From positions 458,589 through 522,588 of the forward strand of contig JAAOMT010000599.1 in assembly GCA_016748015.1 (NCBI GenBank): a DNA stretch of 64,000 nucleotides. The letters are read 5' to 3'. Below, piece by piece: positions 659 to 53,493 of this stretch. The notes under the pieces are model-generated. The model saw only the letters and a list, made by a program, of their open reading frames with translations, did no database searches and was not told where the DNA came from. The translations under genes were made by a program, and so were the position numbers. Source of the stretch: Geosiphon pyriformis uo1. Lineage: Eukaryota > Fungi > Glomeromycota. Within the stretch, counting starts at the first letter, position 1, and every line of letters begins with the position of its first letter.

Positions 659-2460
659 ATGGCCTACACACCAATTGCAAAACTGGATAATTTCACTGGC
701 AAAGAGGACGATGCTCAAGTATGGCTGAACAATATAGAAAAAACCATCACAGCCAATGGATGGAATGACACTCAAGCAATGCAAGCCATTCCCTATTTTC
801 TTAAAGATACCACCAATTCATGGTATCAGAGCTTGATCAATAAACCACAAAACTTCAATGCCTTCAAAGTAGAATTTTTAAGATACTTCAGCAACAATAA
901 CAGTATCAACCACCTAGTCAATACATTCACCATCATGAAGCAAAAAGAAACTGAAGCAGTTATTACTTACCTGGGATGCTTCTATAAAAATCTGTGCCAG
1001 ATCCAGGCAATTGATGCCAACTATTTCACAGCACCACAAATTCTCAACCAGTTTATCCATGGTCTGCGCAGCAGCATCTTACAACATATATGCCCATTGC
1101 ATCTAGACAACCTTCAAGATGCAGTCACACACGCCAGAGATTTTGAATCAGCTGAGTCTGAAGCCAACCACACCCAAGCCATTAATCTAGTAATGAATGA
1201 ATCATCTGAATTGGACTCCAAATTGAAACAATTTAGTGATTCAATTAATCAGAAATTAGAGAAATACTTAGCTGACAATCACACCATTTATCAACCACCA
1301 CAATGATATAATAATCCAGGAAATGCGAATTGTTTCCAAAATCAGTCGTGTCTATCATCATTATCAACAACACCTAATCAGTCGTGACAGCCAGAAATGC
1401 ATGTTTACCACAACTGTGGTAAACAAGGACACATAAGAGCAGACTGCAGATTTTATAGCAACAATACACGATTGGAAAATCAATATTGAAACTCCGATTG
1501 CAGATTTCAGACTCAGAATCACTACCCAAATCAAGACCAATATTAAAACACTTACCTGCCAATGACACAGCAACCAATTTATCAAGTACCAATATATCAA
1601 ACTCCAGTTTATCAACTGCAGCCACCAGCAATATATCAACCACAGCCACCCATAATATATTAACTGCAGCCACAAGTAATCTATCAACCCCAATCAATTC
1701 AGACACCATCTCAGAATTCAGTTAATATGACATCAGGCCACTCCAGACCTAGAATTACACAAAACTGGAGATCAGTAATAGTTGTCTACCAACTGATCCC
1801 CAGTTCTTCTAACTTACCATCAGGATCGTATTCTCGGAATTCAGGTACTAGTGCCACCCAAAACCCGAATTTCCAGAACTATTTAAGTCTCCTGGTTATC
1901 CCAAAAAATGCCACTTTCAACAATTCAGAGACCAACCAACAAGCAACACTTACCAGCAACATACCTCCAGCCACTGTTACCAATGATGAATCATTAGCAG
2001 CCATCTTTCCTTTTGAACTTGAGGAACCATCCCAATTACCCTTATTTAGTGGAACCACCCTTGAAGAGAAACCCATCATAGCAATGTACACTAATACAAA
2101 AGTAGATGGACACTCTATCAAACTTATCCTTGATAGCAGTTTAGCAGGCAGCATTATCATCAAGCAACTCATGGATCAATTAGATCACCAAGTTGATCAA
2201 GCTGCCAGTGCTAGAATCATTACTGCAGATGGCGCCACAAAAACACCTATTGGCAAAATTGACAACTTTCCAATTAAAGTGAATGGCATTGTTACCCCAT
2301 TAAGGTCTTGGTAATGGAAGCAACGCAGTACCAAGCACTAGTTGGTAATAATTGGCTAGTCAAAACCAACACCATGCTCGACTGGACCATACAAGAACTC
2401 CAGTTCAGTCAGAATGGATGACACACACAGGTATCAGCCACATGTGGCCACTTTAAGACT
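659..2460 (+). pseudogene. gag-pro: Element A gag (capsid, CCHC knuckle, Gln/Pro-rich tail) in frame with aspartic protease
   Basis: The retrotransposon capsid-like ORF 659-1306 continues in the same frame through (Y)HNCGKQGHIRADC (~1405-1447) into ORF 1727-2314, which contains the protease motif LILDSS. Confidence 0.85.
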
Positions 2461-3689: not shown

Positions 3690-4420
3690 AGCAATAATAA
3701 TGAAGGTATTATGCCAGAATGCACACATGATACAGATGTCAGATTTGACTTAAGGTATCCAGGAAAAGATGCTATCAAATTGGAACCACATTTGTGCACC
3801 TGCATTGATTTAAAAATAGTACTGGAAATTCCAGCAACAACAATAGTTCAACTAGCATTCCAGAGTAGTTTAGCAAAAAGAGAGATTAATATAAGAGGAG
3901 AAATAATTGACATGGAATATGTAGGAAATATTATCACCATGCTACAAAATGACTCAGAAAAGACTTATATAATAAAGCCAAACAAAAAGATAGCACAGGC
4001 AATATTTTTACCTTTGGTTAAGATAGCTCAGTTAGTACCAGTGGAAAATAGGGAGGAGTTAAGAATAACAGCAAGAGAGATACAAGGATTTAGGTCAACA
4101 GATAGAATAGATGTACCAGTTAATATGGCAGAGGAAGAAATTGTTGGCCAAGAAGAAATTATCTTAACCAGTCAAACTATTTCCATTCCACCATATAGCC
4201 AGTACATGCTAGCAATAGAAAGGAAAAAAAAAGAACAGAATCAGATTTTTGAAGCAGAACCAACCCTTTGTAAATCAAGAGAGATTGGACTCATCAATCT
4301 CCACATACCAGCCAAAAATTACAGCCACATCAAAATTCCCATCTACAACAACACAGAGAATGTTATAGTAATACCAGCCAGAACTATTATTAGATACTTA
4401 AGCACTGAAATAGAGGATTA
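3690..4420 (+). pseudogene. dut: Element A dUTPase followed by a degenerate dUTPase-like segment
   Basis: Decayed motifs D(V)RFDL, QSSLAK, GEIIDMEYVG, KIAQAIF and REIQGFRST in ORF 3711-4421. Confidence 0.88.
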
Positions 4421-4619: not shown

Positions 4620-5847
4620 AATGAATTTGGCAGAACTGACATCATCCAACATCAAATCAAGACTGGAGATGCAATGCCAATCAAACAGTGAGCATACAAA
4701 GTACCACCAGCCAACCATGAAATCATCCGTCAAGAAATCAATCGAATGCTTAACAATAGGTTAATTCAGTCATCAATAAGCCCATAGTTGTCACCAGTAG
4801 TACTCATCTATAAGAAGAATAGAAAGATCCAATTTTGTGTAAACTACAGGAAACTAAATAGTATAACTCGTGGAGACAGCTATCCAACTCTACAGATACA
4901 AGAACAAAGAAAAAACGGCATTCACCACAAGAGAGGAAAACTTTGAGTTTGAAGTTATGCCATTTGGCTTAACCAATACACCAGCCACTTTCCAATGGCT
5001 AATGGAAATTGTTTATACTGGCTTATTGTGAAAATCAGTAGTTGTATACTTGGATAACACCAATGTATTCTCAAAAACATTTGATGATCATCTTCATCTT
5101 CAACAAGTGTTTAAAAGACTAAGAAGAACAGAACTAAAGTTAAATGCAACAAAGTGCTTCTTTGGCAAGACAGAACTAAAATTCTTGGGACACATAGTCA
5201 GCAAAGACAGCATTAAAATAGATCCAGAGAAAATAGAGATAGTAAAGAACTTTTTAGTGCTGACCAATATGACAGAATTAAAATCATTCTTGGGATTTGC
5301 CAGCTACTATCAATGTTTTATCAAGAACTTTTCCAAGATAGCACAGCCACTCAACCAACTGCAAACCAAGAATACAAAATATGAATAAACGGAAAGTCAA
5401 CAAAAAGCTTTTGATATTCTGAAAAGAAAGCTCATTTAAGCCCCAGTACTGATCTATTCAGATCACAGCAAACCATTCATCATCACTACTGATGTATTCG
5501 GTCAAGCATTAGGAGCAGTACTATTTTAGAGAAGACCAAATGGCAGAGAACATTCAGTAGCATATGCCAGCAGAGGTTTAGCACCAGCCAAAAAGAACTA
5601 TGGAACACTGGAACAAGAACACTTAGTGATATACTGGGCAGTCATGAAATGGAAAGAATACTTGAGCCAAAAGTTTAAAGTGTACACAGATCACAAAGAA
5701 TTAACATCACTCCAAAAACAAGAATTTGGAGATGGAAGACAGTTAAGATGGAAAATAACACTCATACCATATAATTATACTATACATTATAAAAAGAGAA
5801 AAGACAATAGAAATGCTGACAGTTTGTTGTGAATGAGACAAATCTAA
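4620..5847 (+). pseudogene. pol: Element A reverse transcriptase and RNase H (internal deletion near 4895)
   Basis: FTT...[36 protein letters not shown] and NADSL motifs. The ORF ends MRQI* at 5845-5847. Confidence 0.92.
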
Positions 5848-5908
5848 GAACATTTCAACCCAAAAATATAACAAAACCAAAACAAAACCCACGAAAATAT
5901 AACAAAAG

Positions 5909-7285
5909 ATGAACACACAAAAATATTAACAACTTCAATATTATATAGATACTCAACAATTCAAGAAGAAATTATCTCAACCAGAACAAAAGAGGATCAA
6001 ACAACAATCCAAATATTTTATCACTTACTAAAATATACTTTATCAGAAAAATAGAAAAGATTCAGATCAGCCAACCAGAGTAATTACAGAACCAGAAAAA
6101 GAAACAATACTGTTCAATATGCACTCAGATCCAACTGCAGGACATTTTTATAAAGAAGCAACCATAGAAAGAACCAGAAAGAGATACTATTAGCCATCAA
6201 TGTATCCAGACATCATACAATATGTACAAAATTGTGATGCTTGTCAAAGAAGAGGAGGAACAAGACCCAGTGAACTATTAAGACCAATCAAAGTGGGACA
6301 ACCATTTGACCACATTGGAATCAATTTAGTTGGACCATTGACAATTACCAGCAGAGGCAACAGATATATTGCAGTAGCCATGGACTACCTTACAAAATGG
6401 CCAGAAGCAAAAGCAATTCAAAGAGCAGATGCAGAATCCGTTGCCGAATTTGTCCATTAAGATTTGATTTGTCGACATGAATGTCCAAAAGAACTATTAT
6501 CAGACTAAGGAACCCATTTTGTAAATAGAACATTAGCAGAACTAAGCCAAAGATTCGGAATTAAGAGACTACTATCATTACCGTACCATTCACAAACCAA
6601 TGGATTAGTTAAAAGATTTAATAGGACATTGTATAAAACAATAGCAAAACTCAGCCAAGAAAACCAAGACGAATGGAATTTGTTTATACCATCCATACTA
6701 TTTGCTTATCAGACAATGAAACAAGACACTACACAAGCAACACTATTTGAATTAATATACAGTAGAACAGCAACACTACCAGTCGAGATAGAAGTTAACA
6801 CTTATCCAACAGAACCAATAACTGTAGACAATTTTCAGGAAATGTTACTAAGAAGAACATATGATTTGATGGAAGTTTTAGAAAACAAGCAATAAAGAGC
6901 AGCTGATAACATTAAAAAAGCACAAGAGAAACAAAAAGAGAGGCATGATAACCAACTACCAAACAAACCAGTTGAATTCAAGATTGGAGACAAAGTACTT
7001 TTATATCGTACTAAAGCAGAAAAACAATGGAGTGAGAAATTTGACCCCAAATGAGACAGACCATTTCACATAGAAAAAATTCTAGGAAATGGAGCTTACA
7101 AATTAAGACTGGACAACAGAATCTTAGCCAAAGCAGCACATGGTAATCAACTAAAACCATATCACCAGATAGCATCAGCATCTATCAATAACATTCCACA
7201 ACTGGGAGTACAAAGAATACTAGTCCAATCAGATAAGATTCCACAAGACCTGGAACCAATCATAATTATTAGACCAAACATGTAA
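5909..7285 (+). pseudogene. int: Element A integrase encoded as a separate ORF
   Basis: ATG at 5909. HSDPTAGH...CDAC zinc motif, LVGP...DYLTKWPEA, SD*GTHF, QTNGLVKRFN and GPF-type C-terminus all lie in one frame to TAA 7283-7285. Confidence 0.9.
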
Positions 7286-7344
7286 AATTGAACAACAAAA
7301 GAGTATATAAAGACATGGTCGACATGACAAAAGATACCAGAAAA

Positions 7345-7968
7345 ATGGAAATAACCGACAACATCCACTCACTAGCACAACAACTCTTTCAATTGATCCA
7401 ACACCAAGAAATAGAAATTACAATCAATCAACAAACCATTTGTTACAAAAATAGGACAAAGATACCACAACACAAAGCACAGAAAAGACTTGAAAATATT
7501 GTTGACAAGATCATAACCAAGATAAAATTGGCCATAAACGAATAACAAATAGTCAGATTATACCAAAAACTTATCAGAGAAACTTGGACTTGGTAGACAC
7601 AACAATTTCTGAAAAACTATTGTCATTTTTACTTGGGACAACACGTAAATATTTGGAATTTGTACACTGACAAAACAAAACGGTTATTCAACACAACAAT
7701 ACTAAGACAACTGGAACAATTTATGGGAAAGAACAATCTAATCACACAAGCTTGAGCCATTTACCGACTATATATGGGATTTCAAGACCGACCAGAAATT
7801 TTACTTAACACAGCAATGGATACAGTTACAAGTAATCAATTGGGAAAAATGACCAATGCCCAATTTAAAGAACTACAAACTAAAATAACACAAGTAATAC
7901 TCAAAAAAAAAGTTCAAGAAATAATTTAAGAAGGGAAATTAAAGAAATTAGATTTTGACAGAGCTTAA
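7345..7968 (+). pseudogene. Element A 3' accessory ORF (ORF3), unknown function
   Basis: About 200 codons in one frame with mutational stops (MEITDNIH...AIYRLY...LDFDRA*). It is homologous to the 3' ORFs of D, F, K1, K2 and the remnant in G. Confidence 0.75.
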
Positions 7969-7972
7969 TATT

Positions 7973-7987
7973 AAAAGAAAGGAATAA
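7973..7987 (+). promoter_or_regulatory. Polypurine tract of element A
   Basis: AAAAGAAAGGAATAA immediately precedes the LTR start TGTTAC at 7988. Confidence 0.75.
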
Positions 7988-8831
7988 TGTTACTTATAGA
8001 ATATAGAAAATATAGTACTATTAGTCAGTAGATATTAGCCAATCAGATGTAGATGTAGTAAATATGGAATTCCAGAATTCCTCTCAGAGGAATTACAGAA
8101 TTCCAGAAATTTCAGGATTTCCCGATGAGGAAATGCAGGGTTCCAGAATTCCAGGATTCCTCTCATCAAGAATCTCAGGATTTCTGTCACAATTGAGGAA
8201 TCTCAATTATGTATATATAGTAGTAGAATTAGAAGCTAAAAAGACAGACCTTTCAAGTTTAGATTTAATCTAAGCAACTCTCCAAATTACAACCATCTAA
8301 TAAATAACTATTTGTTATCTTAAATCCATTTCCACTATCAACACTTCATGTTGATAGTAATCAACACTTAACTATACTGGAACAATAATTTTTGATCATG
8401 GCTATTGACAGAATACTAACTTGCAAATTATCTTGGCTTATTTCTTTTTTTTTTTTATTTTCTTTTCTTTTCTTTATTTTCTTGCTTTGATTTTATTGTT
8501 GTTTACTAATTCTATTGAAGATTAATGCATGTAGCACTGACATTAGGATAAATGTGACTGGTAAAAGACCCAGGAATAAGGGTAAAACACTTGATTGAGG
8601 ATAGCTTACCAAGAGGAATACCAGCCATCAAGCTAAGAAAGAAATTGACAAAACTGCAGTTTCGGAAAGCTATGGATAAAACTATCACCATTGAATCTCT
8701 GTTCATTATACAAAGAACTCAACCAAAACTTTCAGATAAAATACCTTCAGATTATCATCGTCACCAATAGCTTTGAGCACCAAGTTACAGGTTTGTTATT
8801 TAATCCAACAACCAAATAGCCACCTGTAACA
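7988..8831 (+). repeat. 3' LTR of element A
   Basis: TGTTAC...GTAACA termini, GGAATTCC-rich repeats at ~8065-8205, and a downstream half homologous to the LTR of B (13346-~13900, reverse strand). Confidence 0.9.
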
Positions 8832-16852: not shown

Positions 16853-19800
16853 TATTATAAATATATTTAATAAAATAATATTATAATGTTTTAGTGCTTA
16901 AAATTTAGTAATAAGAGCTAAATAGTCTTTAAATAAATTGTGTTTAATTGTTAATAGTTCTATTAGTCTTTAAAAATTTTTTGTTTATAAATTTATCTGT
17001 TGAGTTTTTTTGTTATAAAACACAAAGATGTGTTTTTTATTGTAATATTAATATTATTATTATATTATTCTGTAATAGTTAATTACAATTGCTAAAATTT
17101 AATATTGTTTTTTTGCTCTTTTAATAAGCTAACAAGATAAAGTTAATATTTAAACCTAAAAAAAACTTCTCTTTTTTATTAGACTATTATAAAATCTAAT
17201 CTTAAAACAGTTAATTTTCAATATTGCTATTTTATAAAATAAATAAAAATAAAAGAAAAAAAATTAGTATCTTATTAATTATTATAATTAAAAGCAATTA
17301 ATTTAAGTTGTTAGAATTTTAAAAGCATTATTCTAATTGTATTGATTTAAAATTAAAAATAAGCAAAACAATTAAGTAGATTTCAACAAATAATTTGGTA
17401 AAATTATGTAATTATAAATAAAATAATAATATTTTATTTAATTAATAAAAGATATAAAAAAAACCAAGATAAAAAAAGCTTTTAGATTAAAAATAAAAAT
17501 TTAATTTTTGTATAATTTTTTTTTCTGTCTGTTAAAATTACTTGTTTTTATATATATTTTCTAATTTTATAAAATTGCTTTTAATTATTTGTTATTATTA
17601 ATTATTATTTACTATTTTTAGCTATTACTTTGTTTTTTATATTATAATTAGTTATTTTATATTATTACTAATTATTTTGTATTATTTTGAATTATCTTAT
17701 GTTATCTTATTTTTTTATTTTATTACATAGTATTTACGTTTTTTTTAATAAGTTTTTGATCAATTTTTTACTTAAATAATAATATTTTTTTTTTAAAATT
17801 AAATTTCTGTAAAATCTTCAAAAGTTGTTTTTTTAATATAATGTTTAAATATTATATTAAATATTGTTTTTTATAGTTTTTTGAATTGTAATTGGTTATT
17901 TTTTTAATGTTGTTAACTATAATTGTTTTTATTATACTGTTTAATAATATAATTAAATAGTATTTAAATACTAAATATAATCTGTAAGTTGCTTTATAAT
18001 GTAATATTAGATTGATTTTTTTAAAAAATTGTTTTACTTGTTCCAAAACTTTTTTGTTAAATACTTAATTATTGTTATTTATATATGATATTTATAAATT
18101 TAGTTTTTTATCAATTTTAAAGAACCAATACATTAATAGAAGTTTTTTTTATGTTGTAAAGATTTTTGACATTTATTTTCTAATGTTTAATTCTATTATT
18201 AAATTATTTAAATCTTTTTTTACTTTTTTTATTGTTTAAGTATTAAGGTTTTTTTTGCTTAAAACCAAGTAGATTAAAAATATTTAGTTTTAATTAAATT
18301 TTTATTTGTTTTTTTTTTGCTTATAATTCTGTATTATAATTTTTATTTATTAATAATTACTTTTAAGAAAATTATTAATTATTGTATAGCTTTAAAAAGT
18401 TGTTATAAAAGTTTTAAAATATTATCTAAAATTTTTATAGTAAAATATGTTTACTGTCTTTTAATTTTTCTGGTTATGTTTTTATATTTTTATTATATTA
18501 TAAATTAAATAAATTGTAGTCAACAATAATAATTGGTTTTAGATTTTGTGAAATATTTTTGGATTTAATTAATAAAATTTGTGTTTTTAATTGAAATATA
18601 ATTAATAATAATATTTGTATTATATAATAAAGTTTTAAATAATTTTTATGTGTAGTTTTCTTTAGAATTTTGTTTTTTAATTGTAGTTTATAGACTCTAT
18701 TATCAAGAATTTTATGTATATAAAATAGTTTATTTTACTTTAGATCAAATTTTTTACTCTATTGTTTTTTTGTTTTAGTATAATATAATAATACTTTGGT
18801 TTTAATCTTAAATTTAACTGGTTGGTCAAATAGATAATTGTTATGTCTTTTTTTTTGTTGTTTTTAAGAATTATTAATATTATTAAGTGCTGTTTTGTGA
18901 TTATTTTCTAATGTTTTCATAAACTAGTATGTTTTTTAGTATAAAATAATTTCAAAATTTTTTTTAGCAATTGTTTTTATTAGAAAAAAATATATTTTCA
19001 GTTTAATAAACAGTATAATTATTCTTTTATATACTAATTTAAATAATATAAATTAAATAGTATTTTGCTTTAATATTTGGTATGTAAATAATACTAAGGA
19101 TATAAATAAGTCTTATTCTTGTATATTTTTATAACTTATTTTTGTTAATGCTTTATACAATATTTAGTTAAATTATTTTACTAATTTATTTGTTTGAAAA
19201 TAATATAATAATAATAAAAATTATTTTATTTTAAATTGTTAACTTAGTTTTATAAAAATGCTGTTAATAAAATGAGTTTTTTGATTAAATTATATTTTTT
19301 TTTGATATTTATGTTGACAATCAAATTTTAATATACAAATTCAATTATTGTTTTGGCATTTACAATTTAAATAGCATAAATTTTTGGCTATTTAGTAAAA
19401 TAGTCTATAGCTATTGTAATATATTAATTTTCTTTAAAAATAATTAAAAAAAATTCAATAAAATTAATTTTAATTCTATTAAATAAATTTTCAGCTAGAA
19501 TAAGTTAAAGTAATTTGATTGTTCTACTTCTTTTTTTTTTTTAACAGAAGTTACAATTATAAATATATTTAAAAATATTTTCATATATTATTGACCAATA
19601 ATATAAGTTAATTGTTCTTTATAAAATAGCATTTTTGTTAAAATGTTTGGCAATTAAATTAAAATACATGTTAAACAAGATGGTTTTTTTTTATAATTTG
19701 TTGTAATATGATATGATTTTAACATTTTTATTAATATAACTTTTTATTATAAATAAGATAATTTTAAGTTTGTTTTTAAATAGTACTTTGTTTTTGTTAA

Positions 19801-22211
19801 GATGGTTTTTTTTGGATTAAAATGTTAATAAATATTGGTATAATTGTTAATAAGTAAATGTGTTTATTAATAAAAGATTAAATCTAAGTTATTTTTAATA
19901 AATTGTTAATATTGGTGTTTTTGTTTTTTCTTTATAATATACTTTATAAAAAAATTATTGTAGATAAATATTTTATTTTACATATTTTTTTTCAATTAAG
20001 ATTTATTAAGTAATTATATTAATCTTTTATAATCTGTATATAAGTTAAATAACTAGCAAAAATAATGTTTCCAGTTTTAAACAGCCTAATAAATAGCAAA
20101 ACATTCTAAGTCTGTAATATTATATATTGTTTTGCTGTAATAATACTGTAGTTTGTATAAAAAATAGAACATTTTTGGTTATTAAGTTTAATTTGTAATA
20201 AAATTGTACTTAAGACATTTTTTAAGACATTTATAGCTACAATAAACTATTTATTAAAGTCTAAATATATTAGAATTAAAGCTTTGATAAATTAATATTT
20301 AATATAGTTAAAAACTTTCTGTTGGCTAATTTTTTACATATAAGAAACATATTTTGAAAGTAGATAATAAAAAGTTTAACAATATCTAAAAAACTTTTGA
20401 TAAAATAATAATAATATTTAACAAGTCTTAAAAATTTTTATAATTCTTAGAAATTTTTTGGAACAGAAAAATTTTTAACTTTTTAAACTTTATCTAAATT
20501 GGCTTTATTTTGTTTTTTCTAATAATATGTTTTAGAAATTTAAGCTTGGTTTTTTTAAAAAAACATTTATTAAGATTGAGATTGAATTTTGTATTTTAAA
20601 AATAATTAAAAACTTGTTAAAGATAAAATAGATAATTATCAAATATTTCTGAAAATATGTTGGTATTATTTAGATAAAAAACAATTAATTTTTATAGAAT
20701 TTTTTGTATATAACATTTATCAGATATTAAAAAGTGACTAAGATATTATAGAGTCTAAAAAACATTACATTAAATTCGAAGTTTTCATCTTAAATAGTAA
20801 AAACAGTTTTTTTTTGTCAATTAAGTTTATTTCGACTTGCTAATATTTATTGGCTAAATCTAATTATAAAAACCATTTTTTATTTCCTAAGTTATATAGA
20901 ATTTTTTGAATAAGAAAAGTTAAATAATTATCTTTTCAAGTTATATTATTGAGTTTTTAATAATCAATACAAAAATGTATTTTTTTATTTTCTTTAATAA
21001 TTAAAACAACTGATAAGAATTATAAGCTTAGAAATTTCTTAATTAAATTATTATCTAGTATTTGTTGTACTTTTTGCTTAATTAAGTTGTCTTTATCAAG
21101 ATAATTTAATAAGCTTATTATTTAATAAGTCTAATATTTTTAGTATCAATTTTATATTTTATAATATCAATATATTCAAATTTGTTTTTATTGACAAAAA
21201 TATTAATATATTGGTTTAATAGAACTTTGAATTATATTTGTTAAAAAATATTTAAATTTCAAGATTAAGTTTATTAATTTTTTCTGGAATAAACAAATAA
21301 ATTTTTTTATATTTAAAAAATAATATTGCAAAATAAAAATAGTTAAGCAAAATTAGAAATAGATTAGAATTTTTGAAATTCTAAATGTTTAAAATGTTTA
21401 TAGACTTTAACAGAAATATAAAGATTTAGAATATTAATCAAATAACAGATTTCTGAAATAGCTTTAAACAATAGTGTTTAATTCTGAATTTTTTGTTTAA
21501 TTTTTATAATATACTGTTAGTATAATAGAATTAAAATAATAGTATCAATATAGATAAGTTTTATTTTGTCATTTAATTTTTTTACAAAGTTGATTTGCAT
21601 GTTTTTTTTACTAAATCCAAATTTTTGAATTTTTCTAATAATAAAACCTAATTTTTTTAAGTATTTATTAGAATAAATTAAAAAATTTTAACAAAAAACA
21701 AGAAGATGGCTTAAACAATTTTTTTGTGATTCAATTATATAGAGTTTATTAAAGTTGTTTTGGAATATTATAATAATATTTTCAGTATATTTAGCATTAA
21801 TTATTTCTTTTTTAATATTAATTTTTTTGTTTATAAGACTAAAATAAAATATAATCTGAATTATAGTACTAATAGAGATTTTTAGAACTAATTTAAAATC
21901 TATTTGTATTAAAAAATAGAATACTATAACTACAAAAAATTGTTTGGAGTATTTTAAATTAAATTTAATATTATTTATATGTACTTTTTTTAAATATATT
22001 CTTTTATTATTGTTATTGTATTATTTTAGTTTTAATTCTTTAAAGAAATTAAAACAAGTAAGATATTGTTCTATTTTAATAGCTATATTTGGCTCTTAAA
22101 ATAATATGTATTCTGTAATTAATTTATATTTTTTTTAGGCTTTTTAAATTTAGAAATTAGGTAAAAAATTTAAGATAATAAATTGAAAAAAAATTATATT
22201 TATTATAATAT

Positions 22212-22866
22212 TGTTACGGGTTGGAGTAACAAGCTAACAGATAGCAAGAGAGAACAGGATTGTAGGGTAATGGAAATAATCAAAGGGGAATTTAACTTCA
22301 ATGAGCGAATTGAATGAGTATGGATTCAATGTGTGAGATCAGTCTCATAAAATATCTCAGTCACTATTCTTTTTAAAAGATAACCGGAGAATCTGAAAGT
22401 AGAGGGATAGTCCGTACTGTCAACAATTGATCACCACTGGTATAATTCTATGCCTCACGTTGGCACTCTTAGAATTTAATATCAGATATCAACTTGTGCT
22501 TTTCAGTTACGTTTATTTAAATAGTCTTTAAATACTACAATTATTCAAACAGGAAAAGACCAACAAGTAATTTTTTATCCTAAGATGTTCAGATACTTGA
22601 AGGTAGAGAAAGGAAAATTAGCAATAAGAGAGTGATTGAGATGAAAGTTGTTATTTTTATTTATTTGATTCTTGTCTGAGATATGATTTTCTACAGCTAA
22701 GAGACTTATTGCTTATATAGCTATTGAAAGTGGTCAATGACCAGGTCAATGGTCAGATCATTGATCAGGTCAATGATCACTATCTAAAAATAGAGTGGCT
22801 AATTATATGACATCAGTGGCTACTACATGTGATAACTAATAAAAATTATAGGTTTTAACCATAACA
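22212..22866 (-). repeat. 3' LTR of element D
   Basis: Direct repeat of 29188-29890 with TG...CA ends; the PPT GGAAAGGATAA is adjacent on the minus strand. Confidence 0.95.
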
Positions 22867-23475
22867 TTATCCTTTCCAAAGAGATTGAGCTCTGGCAAAA
22901 TCAAGCTATTTATAGAGTATTCTAATTGAAAGGTTTTGTCTAACTCAAAACTAACTAGTTTGTTGAAGTCTTTTGTGGATAAAGTGTATAGTACTTGAGG
23001 CAAAATAAGCTTTGTATCCAAGAGACCAAACCTTTGTATAAGAGTTTTGGCTCTTCTGGCAATGGTCAAAACTCTTGGGACATCCAACCGTATAATGCCC
23101 AAAATTTCCACTTGTATCTCAGAAGTTGTTTTCTTCATGAGCTTCATGTCTTCTATGATTTCATCAAGGCAACCATAGAGCTCTAGTTGTCTTCCATATG
23201 ACAAGTTTTTGTCTATGGGCAAGATTTCTTTAATTGTTTTTCCAATTGTGGTGGAAGGTACAAGTATTGCTGCTGTTATGCTTTCTAACAGATACTTATC
23301 CATTTTGCTACCAATTTTTTCTCTTTGGTCTGATAACAGTATGAGTTCCACTGTTGTCTGTTATTATGGTCTGTTTTCCAATGATCAGAGTAGTATTTGG
23401 ATAATTTTTGATCCAGTACTCATGGAGAGTGTAGAAAGCATTTTGAATGTTTTGATCTAGGAAATAATTGTTCAT
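22867..23475 (-). pseudogene. Element D 3' accessory ORF (ORF3)
   Basis: MNNYFLDQNIQ...IIGKQTI (ORF 23308-23571) is frameshifted into ORF 22836-23351 (...TIARRAKTLIQRFG...). DFARAQ lies at the PPT in an adjacent frame. Confidence 0.7.
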
Positions 23476-23516
23476 GTCAATTAAAGATACCTCTGTTTTG
23501 GAAATAGTGCATTTAT

Positions 23517-24836
23517 TTATATCTGATTTTTGTTGATAATTTGGGTCAGTATTACCACAACAAATAACCAATCAGGTCATTTGTGATATTTCTTGAATCA
23601 TGTGCCATAAATAGAGCGATCATTGAAGATTGTTCTATATTGATCTTGTAAGATATAAAAATCATTGTTCAAAACTTTGTTGACTATAAAAAGTCTTTTC
23701 CACTGGCTAGAAAATTTATCACCATAGACATTGTCTCTGTCTGAACGGTATTCTAAAACTAAGTCACCAACACTTAAGGAAAGTGTTTTATATGTTTTCT
23801 TTTTCTTAAGCTTCTCTTGGAATTGTTTTATCTTTTTAAAGGCAATTATTTGTGCTTCTACTAATGAGTCAAGAATGGTACCAAGTCTTCTTTGCAAAAT
23901 GTCTTTGTAATTCTCTATTGTTATTTCTTCAAAAAGTATTGTCTCAATGTCAGTTTCTATTGGTAGGGTTGTCATTTGTCTATAGAGTAGATAAAAGGGT
24001 TCATAACTTGTTATGTCATGATTCACAGTTCTATAAGTAAACAAAGCTGAAGGCAGTACTTTGTCTCATAAGTTTGTTTCTTCACTGGTTTTGGCTAGGG
24101 TTTCACATAGTGTTCTATTAAAACGTTCCACTAGGCCATTTGTTTGGGGATGATAAGAAGAGGAAAGTTTGTGACATATTCCCATTTTTCTGCAAAGTTC
24201 TTTAACAAGTATACTGAGAAAAGCTCTTCCTTTGTCAGATAAAAGTTCTTTGAGACAGCCATGGCGACAAATGATATCTTCATAAATGAAATTGGCTATT
24301 GAGACTGCTGTTTGGTCTGGAGTGGCTCTTGCTTCTACCCACTTTGTAAGATAGTTGGTAGCTGTGATAATGTATCTGTTGCCATCAGGAGTTATTGTTA
24401 AAGGTCCAACAACATCTATACCAATTCTGTTAAAGGGTTGACCAACAAAGATTGGATGGATATCTTCTTTGTGATTGGATTTTCCTCTTCTTTGGCAGAT
24501 ATTACAGGTTTTAATGTATTCAGCAATGTCTTTTCCCAAGGTAGGCCAATAATAGTGAGCTAGAGTTTTCTAAATTGTTTTTGTTTTTCCAAAGTGTCCA
24601 GCTAATGGATCAGTGTGCATGTTATAGATTACAATTTCTCTTTCTTCAAATCTAATAACTCTCTGGGAATGGTCAGGATCTTTTCTATTTCTTTTATAAA
24701 GTTGGTTCTGGCAAATCAAATAAAAATTTGATTGTTTGCACAATTGTTCTCTTTGTTGGCATGTGTATTTCAGTGGGTATTGTCCTTTATCCAAAAATTC
24801 TATTAAGACAGAGTAGTTGTCCAAGTCCATTATCAT
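23517..24836 (-). pseudogene. int: Element D integrase (separate ORF)
   Basis: Start MIMDLDNY; HTDPLAGH...CNIC, GIDVVGP, LSDKG and QTNGLVERFN motifs. Confidence 0.9.
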
Positions 24837-24899
24837 GTGTGTTTGTGGGAGAGTTACTAATAATTAGGTTGGTTTAGTTTTGAGAAGGTTGTACTGTCA

Positions 24900-27800
24900 C
24901 TAGATGGTAAGTCTAGAGAGAGCATTGGTGTTTTAATGATTAGCTCCTTTGTGATGTTGAATATCATAGTCAAATTCATCCAAGTGGAGTATCCATTGAG
25001 TTATCCATTTGTGTTCCAGCTTCTTTTTGTTGTGCAGCCAAACCAGAGCTTGGTGATCTGTTACCACCAAAAACTTTATGCCAAGAAGATACTTACTCCA
25101 GTAGCTAGTGGATCATACTACTACTAAGCATTCTTGCTCAGTAACTGAGTAATTTTGTTCTGCTGGGGAGAGGGTTCTACTGGCATATGCTATGGCATGT
25201 TCTTTGCCATCTTCATCTTTCTGTGATAGGACAGCACCAAGTCCAAAGCCAGATGCATCAGTGTAGAGGATAAAAGATCAATCTAGATCAGGTTGCTTGA
25301 GGATGGGTTCTGTAACCAGTTTTTCTTTTAAAGTTTCAAAGGCTTTTTGCTAATGTGTTCTCCAATGGTAATTGACATTTTTTCTGAGTAGCTGATTAAG
25401 AGGAGAGGCGATTTTGGAGAAATCCTTGACAAATTTGTGATAATAAGAGGCCAAACCAAGAAAAGAGTGTAGTTTATGAATGTTTATTGGTTGTTTGATG
25501 TTTTGGACTTTTTCAACTTTGGCTGGGTCAGGAAAGATTTCATTTTTTGTAATAAGATGACCAAAGAACTGGGTGGATTGTCTTCCAAAGAAAGATTTGA
25601 TTGGGTTAATCTTAAGGCCAGCATTTCTGAAGAAGTCAAAAACCTTTTGCAAATATTCCAGGTGTTTATCCCAGGTTTTTGAATATATCATTATGTTGTC
25701 CAAATAGACTAGAACAAAGTTTTCCTTAACTGATTCAAATACTTTATCCATTAAGCATTAAAAGGTGGGAGGGGCATTGGTGAAACCAAAAGGCATAACT
25801 GTGAATTCATAGGTACCATACTTGGTGATAAAGGCAGTTTTCTTTCTGGTTTCTGAATTCATCTCTACTTGTCAGAATCCAGCAGTTAAGTCAATGATTG
25901 AGAAAAAAGCAGCATCTTTGAATTGGTCTAACATTGCATTAATCTTGAGAAGTGGGTACATGTCTCTTTCAGTGATGGCATTTAATTGGCAGTAGTCAAC
26001 ACAGAAGTGTAATGTTCCACTTTTCTTGGATACCACTACAACTGGGAAAGCCCATTCACTCTTGGTTTCTTGTATGAACCCAAGTTCTTTCATCTGGTTT
26101 ATCTCTTTCTTGATAAACTCATCATTGTGCCAATTGGATTGATAAGGCTTCAAATAGATGGGTCAAGTTTCTCTGGTGGTGATAGTGTGTTGTATCACAT
26201 GGATACATCCAGAGATATCATCTTCTTTAGAGATAACTGGGCTATTTCTAGCCAGCAATTTTTCAATGTCTATTTTTCTTTCTTTTGGGGAGGGTTTTCT
26301 TTGTTCTACAGCCAATAATTGGATCTTAGGTGGTTCATTCTCAAAGGACTTCTGTACTTCTTTTAATTCTTCTCTGGGTATCAAACTAATTGGTTCTCAA
26401 TCTTTATAATATATTAGGCATGATTTGCATTTGTTGCTTGGAGAATACAAGGGTTTGTTGCATCAGCACCAGGCATAAGGACCATACCACCAAAAACTGT
26501 ATTTGGCTTTCTTGCCAGGTTTTTTTTCAAAGGCTCTTCTAAGGATATCATAATAAGGCCAGCAGATCAGCTTGTCATTTATAATGATTCTTTCTTTGTT
26601 TGCTTTAATATTGTTCAGTGGTTTGCCATTGCTGGTAAAGGTGGTATAGGCGAGTTCAGCTGTTTCTTCTTGCTCTTTTTGTTCTTCTTTTTCATCGCTC
26701 TCTTCATCATTTGATTCATCTGATTGTTCTTCTTCTTGGTTTTGTTTGGGTACTGGGGGAGTTGTCCAGTAGCGACACTTAACCACAATGGGTTTCTCAC
26801 CACATCTGATGGTTAATTCACAAAGTTCATAATCAAGCAAAGCTTTTGTTTTTTTGAGTCATTCATTGCCAACAATGATGATGTATTCCTTGGCTTCAGA
26901 AACTTCCATGTCAGTTTCAATGCTGATTCCATTGATGTGGACAGAAACAGCTTTGGCAATACCCAGTTTTTTCTTTTTGTCACCATGTACATTGGTCATT
27001 GGTCTGGTGGAAGGTTCATCAATCTTTCTACCAATTGCTTCCAAGAAATGTTTGGCAATAACACTAACAGATGATCCACTGTCCAGAATTAAGTCAATGA
27101 AGTATCCAGCCACTTGGGCTTTACAAATCAGAGGGGTGACATTGCTGTTGTTAGCAAGTCCAGCTTGGCGAGGGCACTTGTTGGTTTTTGGTGTCTTTTT
27201 CTTTGGAATCAAGAATTTGCGAAGATCCTTTCTGAACTGTAAGTGGGTCATTAACTGGCCAAAGATAATATGTGCTGGGGTTTCTATAAGATCTTTGACA
27301 ATGGAATAGGATCCAGATTTTTGTACAATTTTTGGGGGTTCTAACTTTGGAGGATTCTTAAAAACTTTAGCCTTTGGTGGCTCATTGTTATCAGTGGCAG
27401 AAATTGAGGCTTTGTTAGGGTCTAGAACAAAATCAACCTTGGCTTTTTTCTTCTTTCTGGTTGGTTCTGAGGTGTTGATTGCTAGTTCATCCATGTCATG
27501 GTTATCATCAGTTAAGTTAAAAGTGAAAAAGGGGTTTTCTTCTGGTTGGCTTGTACTTTTACTCTTTGGAGGTGTGCCTACCAGTTTAAAGGCTGATAAA
27601 CAATGGCTTCAACTAGGGGATCCTTTCCAAAGAAATTGATGTTGGCATGATTGGTTCTTTGATTAGAGACATTGTTGTTGTTGTTGGGTCTGTTGTTTTG
27701 GTTGTCATTGTTTCTGGGAACTGGAGGAGGCAGTGGAGAATTGTTACAATCTCTTGAATAGTGTCCAGTTAATCCATAATGATAGCACACAGGTGGGCCA

Positions 27801-29135
27801 CAATTTTGCTGTCTTTGATAGGGAGGTTGCTGGGGCTGGTTAAAACAAGGTTCATATCTAAGTCTTGGTGGTTGTTGGTTATCTCTAACTGCTTGTGCCA
27901 AAGGTTCTAATAACCAGGCAAGATTGGCTGTGAGTTTATCAATTAATTGTTTATTTGGAGCTTGAGTTTGGGCAGCAAAAGAAGCAGCAGCCAATTGAGG
28001 GACAAGAGCCATGACAGAAGCAAGAGCAAAAACTGGAAGTGTAGATCTCAAATGTATTCTTTGGTTGTCTTCAATTCATTGGGCAAGTTTAATGGCCATG
28101 TCTATTGTAGAGTTGTCTTTCAGGGCCAAGAGAGGCCAAAGAGCATAAGATAAATCGGTTTTCAATCCTTTTGTGAAGGAATGAATCTTTTGTTCTTCTG
28201 TCCAGTTTCTTCCAGAGTCTACACATTTGATTAGCTTTCTAATAGCTTTAGCATATTCAGTCACTACTTCTCCAGGGCCTTGGGTTTTTCTTTCCAATTC
28301 CATGCACCATTTGGATATTAATATTAGAGTTCTGAACTTGGCCTCAAACTGGATAGTGAAAGAGGTATTTTCTTCTCCAGTATTGGTTGGTGTCCATCTG
28401 ATTATTTTGTGTTGAGCATTGGCATCTGTTTCTTGTAAGAACCAGGTAGCAGGAGAGCCTTGGAGATAGCCACCAATGATTTGGAACTTGTATTCTTCAT
28501 CATACTGGTCGGCTGTGGCAGCTCTCTCAAAATCATCCAACCATTCAATTGGATCTTGTGTATCACCTCTAAATAATGGTAGTAGGGTATTGTTTCTTCT
28601 TCCTAAAGCAGTTTGTATACCTTGGAGGGTGGCCAGAATGTTTGCTTGCATGGGGTTATTAGCCATTGGTTCAAGAGTAACTGTTTGTGTAGATGAGTCT
28701 AATTTACTTGATAAAAGATCAAAAACAGAGGCAGTTTGGTAGCTTTCTTCTTCTGTTTCAAAGGGAGTTTCAGTTTCTTAATGGGCAGCAATCCAAATGT
28801 GGGATTTGATGATTCAGATATTCGAAATCAGGGGGCTTTTGTTCAAAGATTGCAGAATATAAGAGCTGATTAATACTGTTGTTTCTTTCTTTAAAGTTGT
28901 CTTCAAAATAAGCTTGGTCAAAGTAATAGGTTGTATAAGCTGTGTAGGTTTCAGCTGAATGCTTGTTTAGGAACCAGTTCCAAAAGTCTTGGAATTGTCT
29001 GCTGGATTGTTTTTCAATAAGAAAGCAAATCAAGCAAAAGAGCAAAGGATTAAGTTCAATAAAGTCTAGATCGTTTTTGTTGTGTGCTTTAAAGTGTTTT
29101 TTTGATTGTTGTGGCAGGTATGAATAATCACCCAT
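24900..29135 (-). pseudogene. gag-pol: Element D gag-protease-RT-RNase H
   Basis: Capsid ORF 28076-28666, CYHYGLTGHYSRDC, LILDSGSSVS, IDLTAGF, YLDN, YTDASG and NALSR followed by TAG TGA. Confidence 0.92.
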
Positions 29136-29164
29136 ATAATAGAAAGCAAAGTGGATTTTGACAA

Positions 29165-29181
29165 CCTCACAGGGAGCACCA
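29165..29181 (-). promoter_or_regulatory. Primer binding site of element D (TGGTGCTCCCTGTGAGG)
   Basis: Lies 6 nt (TAAAAG) downstream of the 5' LTR; the same arrangement is seen decayed in E at ~32347-32370. Confidence 0.8.
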
Positions 29182-29187
29182 CTTTTA

Positions 29188-29890
29188 TGTTATGGGTTGG
29201 AGTAACAAGCTAACAGATAACAAGGGAGAACAGGATTGTAAGGTAATGGAAATAATCAAAGGGGAATTCAACTTCAATGAGCAAATTAAATGAGTATGGA
29301 TTTAATGTGTAAGATCAGTCTCATAAAATATCTCAGTCACTATTCTTTTCAAAAGATAACCAGGGAATCTGAAGGTAGAGAAATAGTCCGTACTGTCAAT
29401 AATTGATCACCACTGGTATAATTCTATGCCTCACATCGGCACTCTTAGAATTCAATATCAGGTATTAACTTGTGCTTTTGAGTCACATTTATTTAAATAG
29501 TCTTCAAATACTACAATTATTCAAACAGGAAAAAGCCAACAAGTAATCTTTTATCCTAAGATGTTTGGATACTTGAAGGTAGGGAAAGGAAAATTAGTAA
29601 TAAGAGAGTGATTGAGATGAAAGTTGTTATTTTTATTTATTTGATTCTTGTCTGAGATATGATTTTCTATAGCTAAGAGACTCATTACTTATATAGCTAT
29701 TGAAAGTGGTCAATAACCAGGTCAACAACTAGGTCAATGATTAGGTCAATGATCAGGTCAATGATCAGGTCAACGGTTAGGTTATTGATCAGGTCAATAA
29801 TCACTATCTAAAAATAGAGTGGCTAATTATATGACATCAGTGGCTACTATATGTAATAACTAATAAAAATTATGGATTTCAACCATAACA
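29188..29890 (-). repeat. 5' LTR of element D
   Basis: Direct repeat of 22212-22866 but 48 bp longer (12-bp CAGGTCAATGAT units). Confidence 0.95.
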
Positions 29891-30259
29891 ATATTGAAAA
29901 TAAAAAAAATTAAGCAGTAATTACACAATTTTGTATTAAAACTGGTTAGTTTTTGCTTCTGTTTTTTGTAAGTAAAAACAAGTTTTTAGTAATATTTTTA
30001 GAAAATTTTAAAGTTATTAGTAAAAAAAATTTTTTTATTGTTATTATTACAGAAACATTTTTAATAGTATGTATTTTCTTAATAATCATATTTTTTTATT
30101 TTTATTATAGGAATATGTATTTATTTGTTAATTGTTTAATTATAAACAACAACAAACAGAGTTTTTTGTATGTTTAATTGTTAATATATATAATATATTA
30201 ACAAAATTTATCACATATTTTTTTTTTAAAAAATATTATTTTATAGTTTTTTATCTAAT

Positions 30260-46153: not shown

Positions 46154-47011
46154 TGTTATGGGATGGTTTTCTTGTTATATTTAATTGCAATCAGTCTTTC
46201 GTGAATTCTTCAATTCTATTTGTGTGATAATGTCACTGTTATACTGAAGGCTTTCTTTTTAATGTTGTAATATAAGTTATTTTTTTCAATTCCTGATTGT
46301 TGTGTGTGTTTATGTACTCCTTTTCAGAGGCTGAACTGAAATCTACCCACTGTTTGGGGTTTTCTCTGAGGCTATCCTTGCAATTGCCTGATGTGTTTCT
46401 CTAATCTAGAAACACAAAATGTTAATGGTCTTTAGCGCTTTCTCTAATTCTTACAATAAAGCTTTTATCAATTAATAATAACGTGAATAATCTTGATCAA
46501 GGATTATTCTTCCAAGGGATTCAGTTGACAAATGATAGTTTCATTCAATAATTAATACAAGTAAATTTCTTAATACTTTGGGTTGTAATAATTCAGTTTT
46601 AAATATTCTTTTTCATTTCTTTTTGATTTAAAAGTTTCTTGGGATATTTAATTTGAAAGTATGATTTAAAGTGGAGTTTGTTGGATAAAATTGGATCTAT
46701 TGCTTGATAAGTTATGATTTTTATTACTTGATTAATTATTTCCCAATATTAAAACTATTGTATATATACATGTTTGTAGTTCTATAAGAAAACACATTGT
46801 AATACTTTCTTTTTGATATTTCAACCTGGTGTTTGCTGCTATCACCAGTTGGTGTTGGCTGCTATTGTGAACTGGTGCTTGTCACTATCGCAAGATAGTG
46901 TTTGCTACTATGTTAATCATTACCTTTCTAAGATTATTACTGTGCTATATTATGATTGAATAGTTTGTATTATTTTTATGATTCTTTTTGCTAAATTCTT
47001 AAACCATAACA
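46154..47011 (-). repeat. 3' LTR of element G
   Basis: Direct repeat of 53494-54370. Confidence 0.95.
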
Positions 47012-47117
47012 TTATCCCCTCCTTTTACGATTGAGCTCTATTGAAATCAAAGTTAATTTCTTCATTAAATTCTAAGTTACTATAGTGGTTCAATACTATG
47101 TTATTAATTTGTTGTTG

Positions 47118-47705
47118 TAATTCTTGTGAACATCCATGTTGGCAAATTAAGTCTTCATGTACAAATTGAGCTATGGAAATAGCATCAGCTGTTTTAATAG
47201 CTCTAGTTTCTGGTTATTTGGTGAGATAGTCCATGGCTACTGCAATATAATAGTTGTTTCTTGTTATTATTGGTAAGGGTCCAACTAAATCAATTCTGAT
47301 TCTGTCAAATGGCTGTCCAACTTTTATTGGTCTTAATAATTCTGTTGTTTTTGCTCCTCCTCTTCGTTGGCATGGGTCACAATTTCTTATGTATTGGATT
47401 ATGTCTGAACTCATTTTTGGCCAATAGTAATGGCTAGTTGTACATTGGATGGTTGCTGTTTTTCCAAAGTGGCCTGAATAAATATTTAAGTGCATGTTAA
47501 ATAAGATAGTTTCTTTTTCATTCGTGGTTATAACTCTTAATAGATTATCTGGATTTTGTCGATTCCGGTAATAAAGTATGTGATTTTGGATGAAATAGTG
47601 TTTTGCTAATTTTTGGAGCTTAATTAGCTCTTTTACTGGCATTTCTTTGTCTATTTGTAGTGTTTCCAAGTATTGGCTAAGGTTTTTGTAAAGGTGGTTG
47701 TTCAT
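47118..47705 (-). pseudogene. int: Element G integrase N-terminal half (separate ORF, truncated)
   Basis: Start MNNHLYKNL; H...GH...CDPC zinc motif and IDLVGP...DYLTK; ends after HGCSQEL. Confidence 0.9.
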
Positions 47706-47734
47706 TGTTGTTGTGGTGGGTGGGTTGGTGATTT

Positions 47735-49060
47735 TTATGTGTGTCTCATTCTTGACAAACAGTCAGCATTAGCATTTTTGGTACCTTCTTTGTATTTGAT
47801 AATATAATTGTATGGTGCTAACATTTGTGACCATCTGGCGTATTTTCCTTTTAGCGCTTTCTTGTTATTTAACCAGACCAGACCTCTATGATCTGTGGTA
47901 ATCTCAAAGGGTTGGTACCATAAATATGTGTCAAAGTGAACACAACTCCAGACTACTGCTAAGCATTCAAGTTTATGTGCTGTGTAGTTTTGTTCTGCTG
48001 TACTGAGACTTTTGCTGGCATAAGCAATTACACATTCTCTTTCATTATCATCTTTTTGTGACAGAATGGCTCCAAGTCCAGTTTCAAAGGCATCTGTGGC
48101 CAAAATGAATTTCTTGTTGAAATTTGGATAGATCATTATTGGTGATTCAATGAGTTTTTGTCTAAGGTACTCAAAAGCTTTTTGTTGTGCTTTAGTTTAT
48201 TCAAACTTCACATTTTTGGATAGTAGGTAATTAAGAGGTTTGGCAATGTTTGAAAAGTTTTTTACAAAGCAGCAGTAGTAAAATGCAAGTCCTAAAAAGC
48301 TTTTAACTTTTGAAACATTTTGAGGTACTAGAAAATTTTTTACTTTGTCTATTTTTGATGGATCTGGTTTTATTCCATCTTTTCCAACTACGTGTCCTAA
48401 AAATGCTAACTCATTTTTCCCAAAGAAACATTTTTCTAGATTTAGTTTAAGTCCAGCATGTCTCAATCTCTCAAAAACTTGTTGTAAATGTTGGAGATGA
48501 TCTGTGAATTTTGACGAGAAAACATTTGTATTATCCAAGTAGACAACAACGGATTGCCACAGGATTCCGGAGTAAATTATGTTCATTAGTCTTTGGAATG
48601 TCATGGGAGCATTTGTTAATCCAAATGGCATTACATTGAACTCATAATTGTCATTTTGTGTTGTGAATGCTGTTTTATGCCTGTCTTTTGGGTCCATTTC
48701 CACTTGCCAGTACCCACTAGTCAAGTCTAGTGTAGAAAACCATTTTGCTCCTCCAAAAACGTCGAAGATTTCGTCAATTAATGGTATTGGGTATAAGTCT
48801 TTGGTTGTTTTGCTGTTTAGTTTGCAATAGTTGATACAAAATCTAATTTTTCCATTCTTTTTCCTTACTAAAACAACTGGTGAGGACCATGGGCTTATTG
48901 ATGATTGTATTATTCCTTTTTCCAACATGCTTTGGACTTCTTCTCTGATAAAATTATGCTCCATTGGTGGAATATGGTAAACATGTTGTTTTTCCAGTCT
49001 GGCGTCTCCAGTAGAGATTTGGTGTTAAACCAAGTTGGTTCTTCCAAATTTGCCATTTTG
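47735..49060 (-). pseudogene. pol: Element G reverse transcriptase and RNase H
   Basis: ORF 48197-48964 (SPWSSPVV, LDLTSGYWQV, MPFGL, YLDN) and ORF 47735-48136 (ATDA, TDH, NADCLSRMRHT*). Confidence 0.95.
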
Positions 49061-49529
49061 TGAAAATATATCAGAGTATTTTAAAATTAATGCTTTTAAT
49101 TGTTGCTGTTGGTCAGGATCCATTGTTCCAATGTTTAATTTGGCCAATTCTAATGGTTGTTGTCAATTTATTGAAGTGAGTTCACAGTAGAGGGAAATTT
49201 AGAATTTCTTGTGGTGTTACCACATTTTCTAGCTCCATTTCGAGATATCCAATGATGATATCTTCTGGAATATAAACAAGTTCTTCTGTGGTGTTTGCAA
49301 TAGGAATTTTTATCTATTGAGCTTTATCAGCTGAAATAAAAAGGTTAGTAAGTCTTATGAAAAACTGTTGACAAGTTTCTGGGTAGGGCTCAAATATTAG
49401 GTTTTTTTCTTTAATTGTCCTTTTTATTCTTATTTCTGATTTTCCATATGGTAGGAGCATGATGGACCGCTCATTTTTAATTACTTCGCCTTTTTCCTCT
49501 ATTGTTTCAACAAAATTTGCTTCAATTCT

Positions 49530-49950: not shown

Positions 49951-50096
49951 TATCGGATGTTGGTCACCTGTTCTAGGTCGGTATAGGCTACAAATTTTTC
50001 TGACTCGGGATCGTCAGATAAGTCTTGTTGATTTATTGATTGATTTTGAGACTGCTGATTCTCAATTTCCATTTTTCTTTCTAAGTTCCTTTTATC

Positions 50097-53411: not shown

Positions 53412-53481
53412 TTTTGTCTCTTCCTTTTTAGCAATGAATTATTACTAATTATTATTTCCTTTTTGATTTTCTTTTCTTATA

Positions 53482-53491
53482 GGGTTCACCA
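53482..53491 (-). promoter_or_regulatory. Primer binding site of element G (TGGTGAACCC)
   Basis: Begins TGG two nt after the 5' LTR. It would pair with a tRNA ending GGGTTCACCA (Trp-like, unverified). Confidence 0.72.
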
Positions 53492-53493
53492 AA

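Follow-up and report, generated by a model that had tools for sequence, protein, structure and literature searches.

A lineage of Ty3/Gypsy LTR retrotransposons in which the integrase is encoded by an open reading frame of its own

The integrase of LTR retrotransposons is taken to reach the particle within Gag-Pol. A pol polyprotein that includes the integrase is the rule in LTR elements according to the accessible text of PMC3248453. Within Gypsy, the group with the YPYY type of integrase comprises Athila/Tat, DGLT-A and Gypsy-1_RO (Bao et al. 2010, PMC2836005, in the portion available to us), and the same portion describes Ginger1, which is bounded by terminal inverted repeats and encodes a C-terminal protease of the Ulp1 or OTU type but no RT, and leaves the direction of descent between Ginger1 and Gypsy undecided. 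As regards the translation of downstream ORFs, the available sections of PMC3542737 and PMC10275272 report stop/restart in fungal viruses and in the non-LTR element SART1, and the latter source states that restart of the TURBS type has no need of a strong AUG context. The last gene of cauliflower mosaic virus, which has a TATA promoter of its own, activates restart on the full-length RNA; according to a 2018 review, TAV-like activators were known only from Caulimoviridae (PMC5902531 and PMC3542737 for this system, in their accessible parts). In the open literature, a scope that leaves Repbase, Dfam and subscription journals outside, we found no report of Gypsy elements whose integrase has an ORF of its own; no split integrase appears in the available text, supplements aside, of PMC3248453 (a fungal LTR survey), PMC2774666, PMC11952901 and 10.1101/2021.03.30.436303 (mycorrhizal transposons), and the separate ORF in the accessible part of PMC13468544 is an extra RNase H.

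We have analyzed a window of 64,000 nucleotides from Geosiphon pyriformis, in which a preliminary description had read the integrase of several Ty3/Gypsy families as a stand-alone ORF. Six-frame translation of the junctions, with the domains placed by Pfam, agrees with that reading in all four readable copies, termed A, D, G and H (Table 1): a stop closes the RNase H shortly past its end motif, the integrase opens at an aligned ATG, and the start positions, spacer lengths and frames are those that had been claimed. In A the upstream frame ends with NADSLL-stop-MRQI-stop, where the earlier stop (5830-5832) sits on the Arg of the NADxLSR motif, and the integrase follows in the +1 frame. In D (LTI, TAG, then TGA) the two candidate ATGs lie 63 and 69 nt downstream, in frame with the RNase H but with further stops between; in G (MRHT, TAA) the spacer is 29 nt and the integrase is in the +2 frame, while in H (IRQD, TAG) it is in frame and open. 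The fifth copy, K1, also looks as described, with a decayed end motif followed by TAG and with the start codon lost. The spacers of the window are A/C-rich (53% A, 4% G) and have no predicted fold. Since all copies are dead, G having lost nearly all of its ORF3 and H lacking a part of the zinc finger and core of the integrase, the window by itself cannot tell design from decay. The order of Pfam domains is of the Gypsy type, i.e. gag, protease, dUTPase (in A, G and H), RT, RNase H and integrase; the LTR pairs of D and G are 87% and 94% alike, with substitutions that are almost all transitions, and TGG (not matched to a tRNA) stands after the 5' LTR of both.

Table 1. Features of the elements in the window (positions refer to the window) and of metagenomic loci (L numbers)
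Feature	Position	Strand	Evidence
A: gag, capsid part, decayed	659..1306	+	Pfam Retrotrans_gag 2e-8, Ty3_capsid 1e-5
A: aspartic protease, partial	2093..2290	+	gag-asp_proteas 1e-4, under curated cut-off
A: dUTPase, between protease and RT	3705..4094	+	Pfam dUTPase 6e-14
A: RT and RNase H, broken; frame closed by TAA 5845-5847	4650..5847	+	RVT_1, RT_RNaseH; tblastn; translation
A: RNase H/integrase spacer, 61 nt, A/C-rich, AUG-free, no predicted structure	5848..5908	+	
A: stand-alone integrase ORF, H2C2 zinc finger and DDE core; 7 decay stops, no frameshift	5909..7285	+	
A: TATA box (TATATAAA), 41 nt ahead of ORF3 ATG; likely internal promoter	7304..7311	+	sequence, family-wide enrichment
A: ORF3, decayed; start picked by likeness to L002 ORF3	7345..7968	+	BLASTP E 3e-12
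A: polypurine tract	7973..7984	+	sequence
A: 3' LTR (TGTTAC...GTAACA); 5' LTR outside window	7988..8831	+	
K1: junction, heavily decayed; stop 19886-19884	19780..19900	-	
D: whole element; RNase H stop TAG 24902-24900; integrase from 24836/24830; ORF3 23303-22836	22212..29894	-	
G: whole element; RNase H stop TAA 47737-47735; integrase from 47705 to internal deletion at about 47116	46154..54368	-	
H: RNase H stop TAG 63151-63153, 51-nt spacer, integrase from 63205 off window edge	63151..64000	+	
UGA-CUA between protease and RT	L007:2882-2887, L008:870-875, L028:902-907, L031:3290-3295, L050:3358-3363, L066:1585-1590		
Post-RNase H extension	L012:4348-5166, L019:3503-4441, L029, L037, L038, L049; also L015, L018, L030, L032, L039		

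The window holds several further features. In A, G and H a Cys-rich region accompanies the dUTPase between protease and RT (3072-3635, 50097-50700 and 60272-61156); L063 has a dUTPase in the same place, but its integrase is far off in the tree. The ORF3 of D enters the 3' LTR and finds its stop inside it (22836-22870). The A 3' LTR is followed immediately by an inverted partial copy of family A (8832-12740, minus strand, gag to dUTPase, 72% alike). Blocks of 12-19% G+C at 16001-22000, 30001-32000, 44001-46000 and 54001-56000 contain strongly decayed repeats, the element DNA having 30-42%, and two related ORF remnants, 14716-15357 and 41557-41955 (minus strand), 69% alike over 1.4 kb and without a Pfam match, apparently represent another repeat family.

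Comparison with other copies and other genomes demonstrates that the separate integrase is a lineage-wide organization of Ty3/Gypsy elements and not the decay of individual copies, and the gag-pol/int/orf3 layout proposed in the preliminary description holds as a lineage feature. In sequencing run X1, which contains family A and is possibly the source sample, 1,228 short contigs were compared over 5810-5930: 10 positions vary at 5% or more, none of them within the stop (5845-5847) or the ATG (5909-5911), and C>T and G>A changes, in either direction, make up most of the variants over 5400-7500. Runs X2 and X3 yielded only 2 and 0 matching contigs. A metagenome DNA search, whose query was built from stand-alone integrases and which is itself blind to ORF ends, gave 546 confirmed stretches; among the best 80 of them, 35 contain both an RNase H end and an integrase and 45 do not contain both. 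A stop precedes the integrase in 35/35, in all three frames, so the contrary case named at the outset, a continuous RT-RNase H-integrase frame in young copies, is absent there. Both sides are open in 23 of these 35 loci from the best 80 of 546, 'open' meaning an upstream frame that extends to the contig end or over at least 420 codons, plus at least 390 integrase codons. Single upstream frames of 1,370-1,651 codons occur in L012, L019, L037 and L063 (the integrase of L063 is broken), and the median integrase identity among loci, two near-duplicate pairs included, is 46%.

The protein databases provide a similar picture. A length-limited search listed 120 of 663 homologs, 359-453 aa long and 42-51% identical; the aligned Met is the start in 101 of the 120 (the remainder begin mostly at a later Met), and neither the RNase H end motif nor a protease domain is found in any of the 120 listed. 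Without the length limit, and ranked by the best single domain, 17 proteins without an RT-sized upstream part precede the first fused one. The nearest integrases with named sources come from Rhizophagus and Cetraspora, and intact families, belonging to the clusters of P0042, P0071 and P0060, are present in Rhizophagus irregularis. The split elements form a large Gypsy-type group, with root-symbiotic fungi as its likely source; a viral sequence collection returned only 3 weak, unrelated loci. One integrase of the lineage (P0443, in the cluster of P0082) has been deposited under a bacterial metagenome-assembled genome, likely owing to fungal contamination of the bin.

A few relatives are fused. 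Among 120 longer proteins listed of 606, P0126 is a continuous RT-RNase H-integrase protein with ORF3 at its end and groups with the split loci L053 and L044 (support 99), while P0131, P0136, P0137, P0175 and P0300 are fused and fall near the split group. Four eukaryotic gene models (P0122-P0124 from Rhizophagus clarus and Cetraspora, and P0128) also join RNase H to integrase. As P0122-P0124 skip both the NADxLSR end of the RNase H and the integrase Met, their joints are most likely wrongly predicted introns; P0128 retains the motif. The data are compatible with a split that arose only once (p-AU 0.15), but it may also have arisen several times or have been reverted to the fused form.

The RT and the integrase have been inherited together. 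Separate trees, as had been suggested in the preliminary description, were built (named GIN1 and Gmr1 sequences left out), and the RT-RNase H and integrase distances of 28 elements correlate with rho 0.73, a value inflated by related rows, against a permutation maximum of 0.42, which argues that the integrase is no passenger. The nearest neighbour is identical in both trees for 14/28 elements, and subgroups recur, with A, G and H joining L002 and D standing apart. In an RT tree without Copia, BEL or retrovirus outgroups, the elements fall among Gypsy polyproteins. Like the canonical YPYY group they have LTRs, a polypurine tract, the order gag-PR-(dUTPase)-RT-RH-IN according to Pfam, with gag, RT and RNase H of the Gypsy type, and an integrase with an N-terminal extension ahead of the H2C2 finger; TG...CA direct terminal repeats are seen in the D and G LTR pairs, the 3' LTR and tract are seen in A, and terminal repeats were found in 5 of 10 long loci examined (L012, L035, L040, L050 and L063). 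In the integrase trees the window copies fall together with Athila/Tat-like and Ginger1 rows and away from the rest of the Gypsy rows. Unlike canonical Gypsy elements, they carry a separate ORF3 of no Pfam family and have the integrase outside the pol polyprotein, this canonical trait being absent in 4/4 window copies and in 35/35 loci from the best 80 of 546. No chromodomain was matched in the split elements.

The likeness to Ginger noted in the preliminary description is real, in that Ginger1-type proteins are among the near matches, yet they form a clade of their own. We use 'Ginger1-type' for six proteins that combine an integrase with a Ulp1, OTU or USP protease, following the definition in the accessible part of PMC2836005. 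The profile match covers about 420 positions, and the split integrases share with Ginger1 the YPYY (identified by eye against the description in that part of PMC2836005), H2C2, DDE and GPY/F motifs. The six proteins group together with support 99; relative to the split group their clade lies outside in a fast tree and inside, at support 85, in a quick ML tree, and the tree that holds Ginger1 outside is better by 8 log units (p-AU 0.61). The kinship between split integrases and Ginger1 is real, whatever its direction. Both, like GIN1, have an integrase of ~400 aa at the N-terminus of the protein, starting near the same profile position, whereas the split elements differ from Ginger1 in their LTRs, the RT-RNase H directly upstream and the direct repeats at their ends, and carry no protease of the Ulp1 or OTU kind.

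The junctions of the metagenomic loci are diverse. We scored 34 of them: L052 was left out (no ATG), the ATGs of L014, L026 and L041 were set by hand from the ORF table, and for L017 and L035 we took the final stop in the extension past RNase H. In these loci, drawn from the best 80 of 546, the spacers range from -20 to +727 nt and split 9/14/11 modulo 3. The distance from stop to ATG is -20 to +2 nt in 10/34, 24-163 nt in 21/34 and 365-727 nt in 3/34, and 9/34 ATGs overlap the stop, including one TAATG and three ATGnnnTAR/TGA. Spacers in all frames together with nine overlaps exclude one fixed frameshift or readthrough; of the nine in-frame spacers, seven contain additional stops, and a leaky stop context is absent from all nine. 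The inner control is provided by the in-frame stops between protease and RT, which read UGA-CUA in 6/6 loci (0/9 at RNase H in-frame stops); UGA-CUA is listed as a type II readthrough context in the accessible text of PMC3542737, and readthrough from gag-protease into RT is likely in these six loci. Spacers of 20-200 nt contain 6 upstream AUGs vs 22 expected, the AUG-free stretch ahead of the integrase ATG has a median of 84 nt vs 26 nt within coding sequence, and a purine occupies -3 in 51/56 integrase starts (near-duplicates included) vs 224/365 internal AUGs. The exceptions are L008, L041 and L050, with spacers of 365, 521 and 727 nt and 7-12 upstream AUGs. A branch point followed by YAG precedes the integrase in 21/51 leaders vs 20.9 expected; YAG is absent from the AUG-free leader in 15/51 and 8/51 have no AG at all. 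In L036 a restriction-endonuclease-like ORF (521-1237; Mrr_cat_2, 5e-9) lies just 5' of the integrase, and its stop overlaps the integrase ATG.

In 21 of the best 80 of 546 loci, almost all from one integrase subclade, a 37-nt stem-bulge-stem-loop stands shortly 5' of the integrase AUG, mostly within about 10 nt (about 30 nt in L029). Eight of its 12 pairs change on both sides among 19 aligned rows and 96% of the cells pair, the structure being derived from the same rows; 0/500 shuffles reach the score, and controls slid along the sequence gave 21-53%. The model has no site in the window and none in L037 of the same subclade, and across the 80 loci it adds only one chance match to the 21 sites. 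No relevant Rfam match was obtained for 16 loci, leaving the stem-loop without an Rfam family. The signature of hammerhead ribozymes is CUGANGA; a hammerhead reading was rejected by eye, no CUGANGA being present. In members of this subclade the RNase H is also followed by an extension of 200-340 aa without a Pfam match, in which a Cys/His-rich block (CDxxCDxENHHxHxxCxxC) is conserved.

A related ORF3 with a core of about 140 aa is found in most loci with enough 3' sequence. The ORF3 of D aligns with the family and that of A is linked to it via L002, its match to the family profile alone being weak (E 0.076). A TATA box lies 130-25 nt upstream of 21/24 ORF3 starts vs 3.5 expected (no more than 10 in any of 200 dinucleotide shuffles), five near-duplicates having been dropped and four downstream ORFs outside the family left out; it is present in A and absent in the decayed D. 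In the same interval upstream of the integrase it occurs at 8/48 starts vs 6.6 expected, and at 1/19 in the loci tested for ORF3. We weighed, and discarded, the possibility that a TATA-like sequence in Tyr-Lys codons at the end of the RNase H serves as a promoter for the integrase. Judged by this signal, ORF3 is likely read from its own internal promoter. Its structural model is all-helical (pLDDT 96), with no match in Pfam or the Atlas, none in PDB or viral libraries at a Foldseek E of 0.001, and a best Z of 4.4 in a wide structural search, which does not prove a new fold. In L010 a NUDIX-domain protein (1945-2889, 1e-10) with an upstream TATA follows the integrase in place of ORF3.

How the integrase is made can be argued from these junctions. 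We lean towards translation from the full-length RNA by restart after the RNase H stop, because 31/34 ATGs are found between -20 and +163 nt from that stop, nine of them overlapping it, and because the spacers are short of AUGs and neither a TATA nor a splice signal is enriched ahead of the integrase. The gag-protease-RT-RNase H product would end at the stop and ribosomes would restart on the same RNA; inefficient restart would give little integrase per Gag, which would matter where gag and pol share one frame of 1,370-1,650 codons. The aids to restart would differ by family, from the stop/start overlap and the short, unstructured, AUG-free spacer of the window to the stem-loop. Untied from Gag, the integrase would have to reach the particle through an affinity for RNA or Gag, or else meet the cDNA at a later stage, and ORF3 might be a regulator made in trans from a TATA-driven short RNA. 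Against restart speak the three long AUG-filled spacers, which are hard to bridge and suggest that the families may not all use the same route, and the stem-loop, which unlike TURBS lies 3' of the stop and directly before the AUG. The AUG-free spacers are equally expected of a subgenomic leader, and the strong AUG context, unneeded for TURBS, fits the scanning of a separate 5' leader equally well. Such a subgenomic RNA for the integrase, made from a TATA-less internal promoter or by splicing from the 5' LTR, the route of env and of foamy virus Pol, is the next candidate, though we think it rather unlikely: it accommodates the three long spacers with many upstream AUGs, and the lineage evidently has an internal promoter for ORF3, but neither TATA nor splice acceptors are enriched, the leaders without any AG offer no acceptor, and the nine start/stop overlaps would not be required. 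Internal entry of ribosomes into the full-length RNA, by way of the A-rich unfolded leaders of the window or the stem-loop of the other subclade, ranks below it and is doubtful; the covarying stem-loop, whose position shortly before the AUG is constant across 21 loci, agrees with it, as does the composition of the window spacers, but the stem-loop is only about 37 nt long and without an Rfam match, the overlap families lack a spacer altogether, and the nearness to the stop would be left unexplained.

Continued production of a fused RT-RNase H-integrase from spliced or recoded RNA appears improbable. The gene models P0122-P0124 and P0128 that join both parts speak for it and, together with the nesting of the fused P0126 among split loci, against restart; the first three, however, look like mispredicted introns, and the use of all three frames, the overlaps, the extra stops and the conserved Met in a strong context do not agree with a fused product. 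It is hardly credible that the integrases belong to Ginger-type DNA transposons or are passengers, or that the stops represent decay: Ginger1-type proteins do begin at, or close to, the corresponding profile position and the window copies are heavily mutated, but the correlated RT and integrase distances and the 23 loci open on both sides argue against it, and intact elements with terminal repeats, which are also present on D and G, already contradict it.

Restart after the RNase H stop, our preferred reading, has parallels in other systems. As in cauliflower mosaic virus (TAV/P6), consecutive ORFs with short overlaps or spacers lie on a full-length RNA, and the last ORF has its own TATA between the preceding stop and its ATG, here as a sequence signal only (PMC5902531 and PMC3542737, as far as accessible). 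The analogy is one of layout, ORF3 showing no likeness to TAV in the Pfam and fold searches. To our knowledge, caulimoviruses have neither an integrase nor an LTR pair. Victoriviruses, the hypovirus CHV1, caliciviruses and SART1 likewise have UAAUG or short overlaps after a long ORF and a downstream enzyme needed in small amount, while most junctions here have a spacer of 24-163 nt, and the stem-loop stands between stop and AUG. As with foamy virus Pol (accessible text of PMC3196705), an enzyme apart from Gag needs a special route into the particle; there the whole of Pol is separate, here the integrase alone. One may speculate that a fungal LTR lineage of wide distribution is programmed in the manner of caulimoviruses, in that a polycistronic RNA would give gag-protease, RT-RNase H (by readthrough in some families) and, by restart, the integrase, while a TATA-driven short RNA would supply a helical ORF3 protein that triggers or modulates translation of the integrase, via the new stem-loop in the case of one subclade, and that the stand-alone integrase would be the kind of ancestor from which Ginger1 arose; as a whole this reading is a long shot.

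New here are the enrichment of TATA ahead of ORF3, the covarying stem-loop in one subclade outside the window and the UGA-CUA context between protease and RT. An integrase made separately has to be dosed and packaged by some other means. The lineage offers many natural cases in which fungi translate a downstream ORF, and the new RNA element and the small protein, whose fold has no match, provide points of entry. The split layout also explains the lone integrase genes and intron-bridged models in the annotation of mycorrhizal fungal genomes, and it supplies an intermediate that the debate on the origin of Ginger1 and Gypsy has lacked: an integrase with its own start codon within an LTR element.
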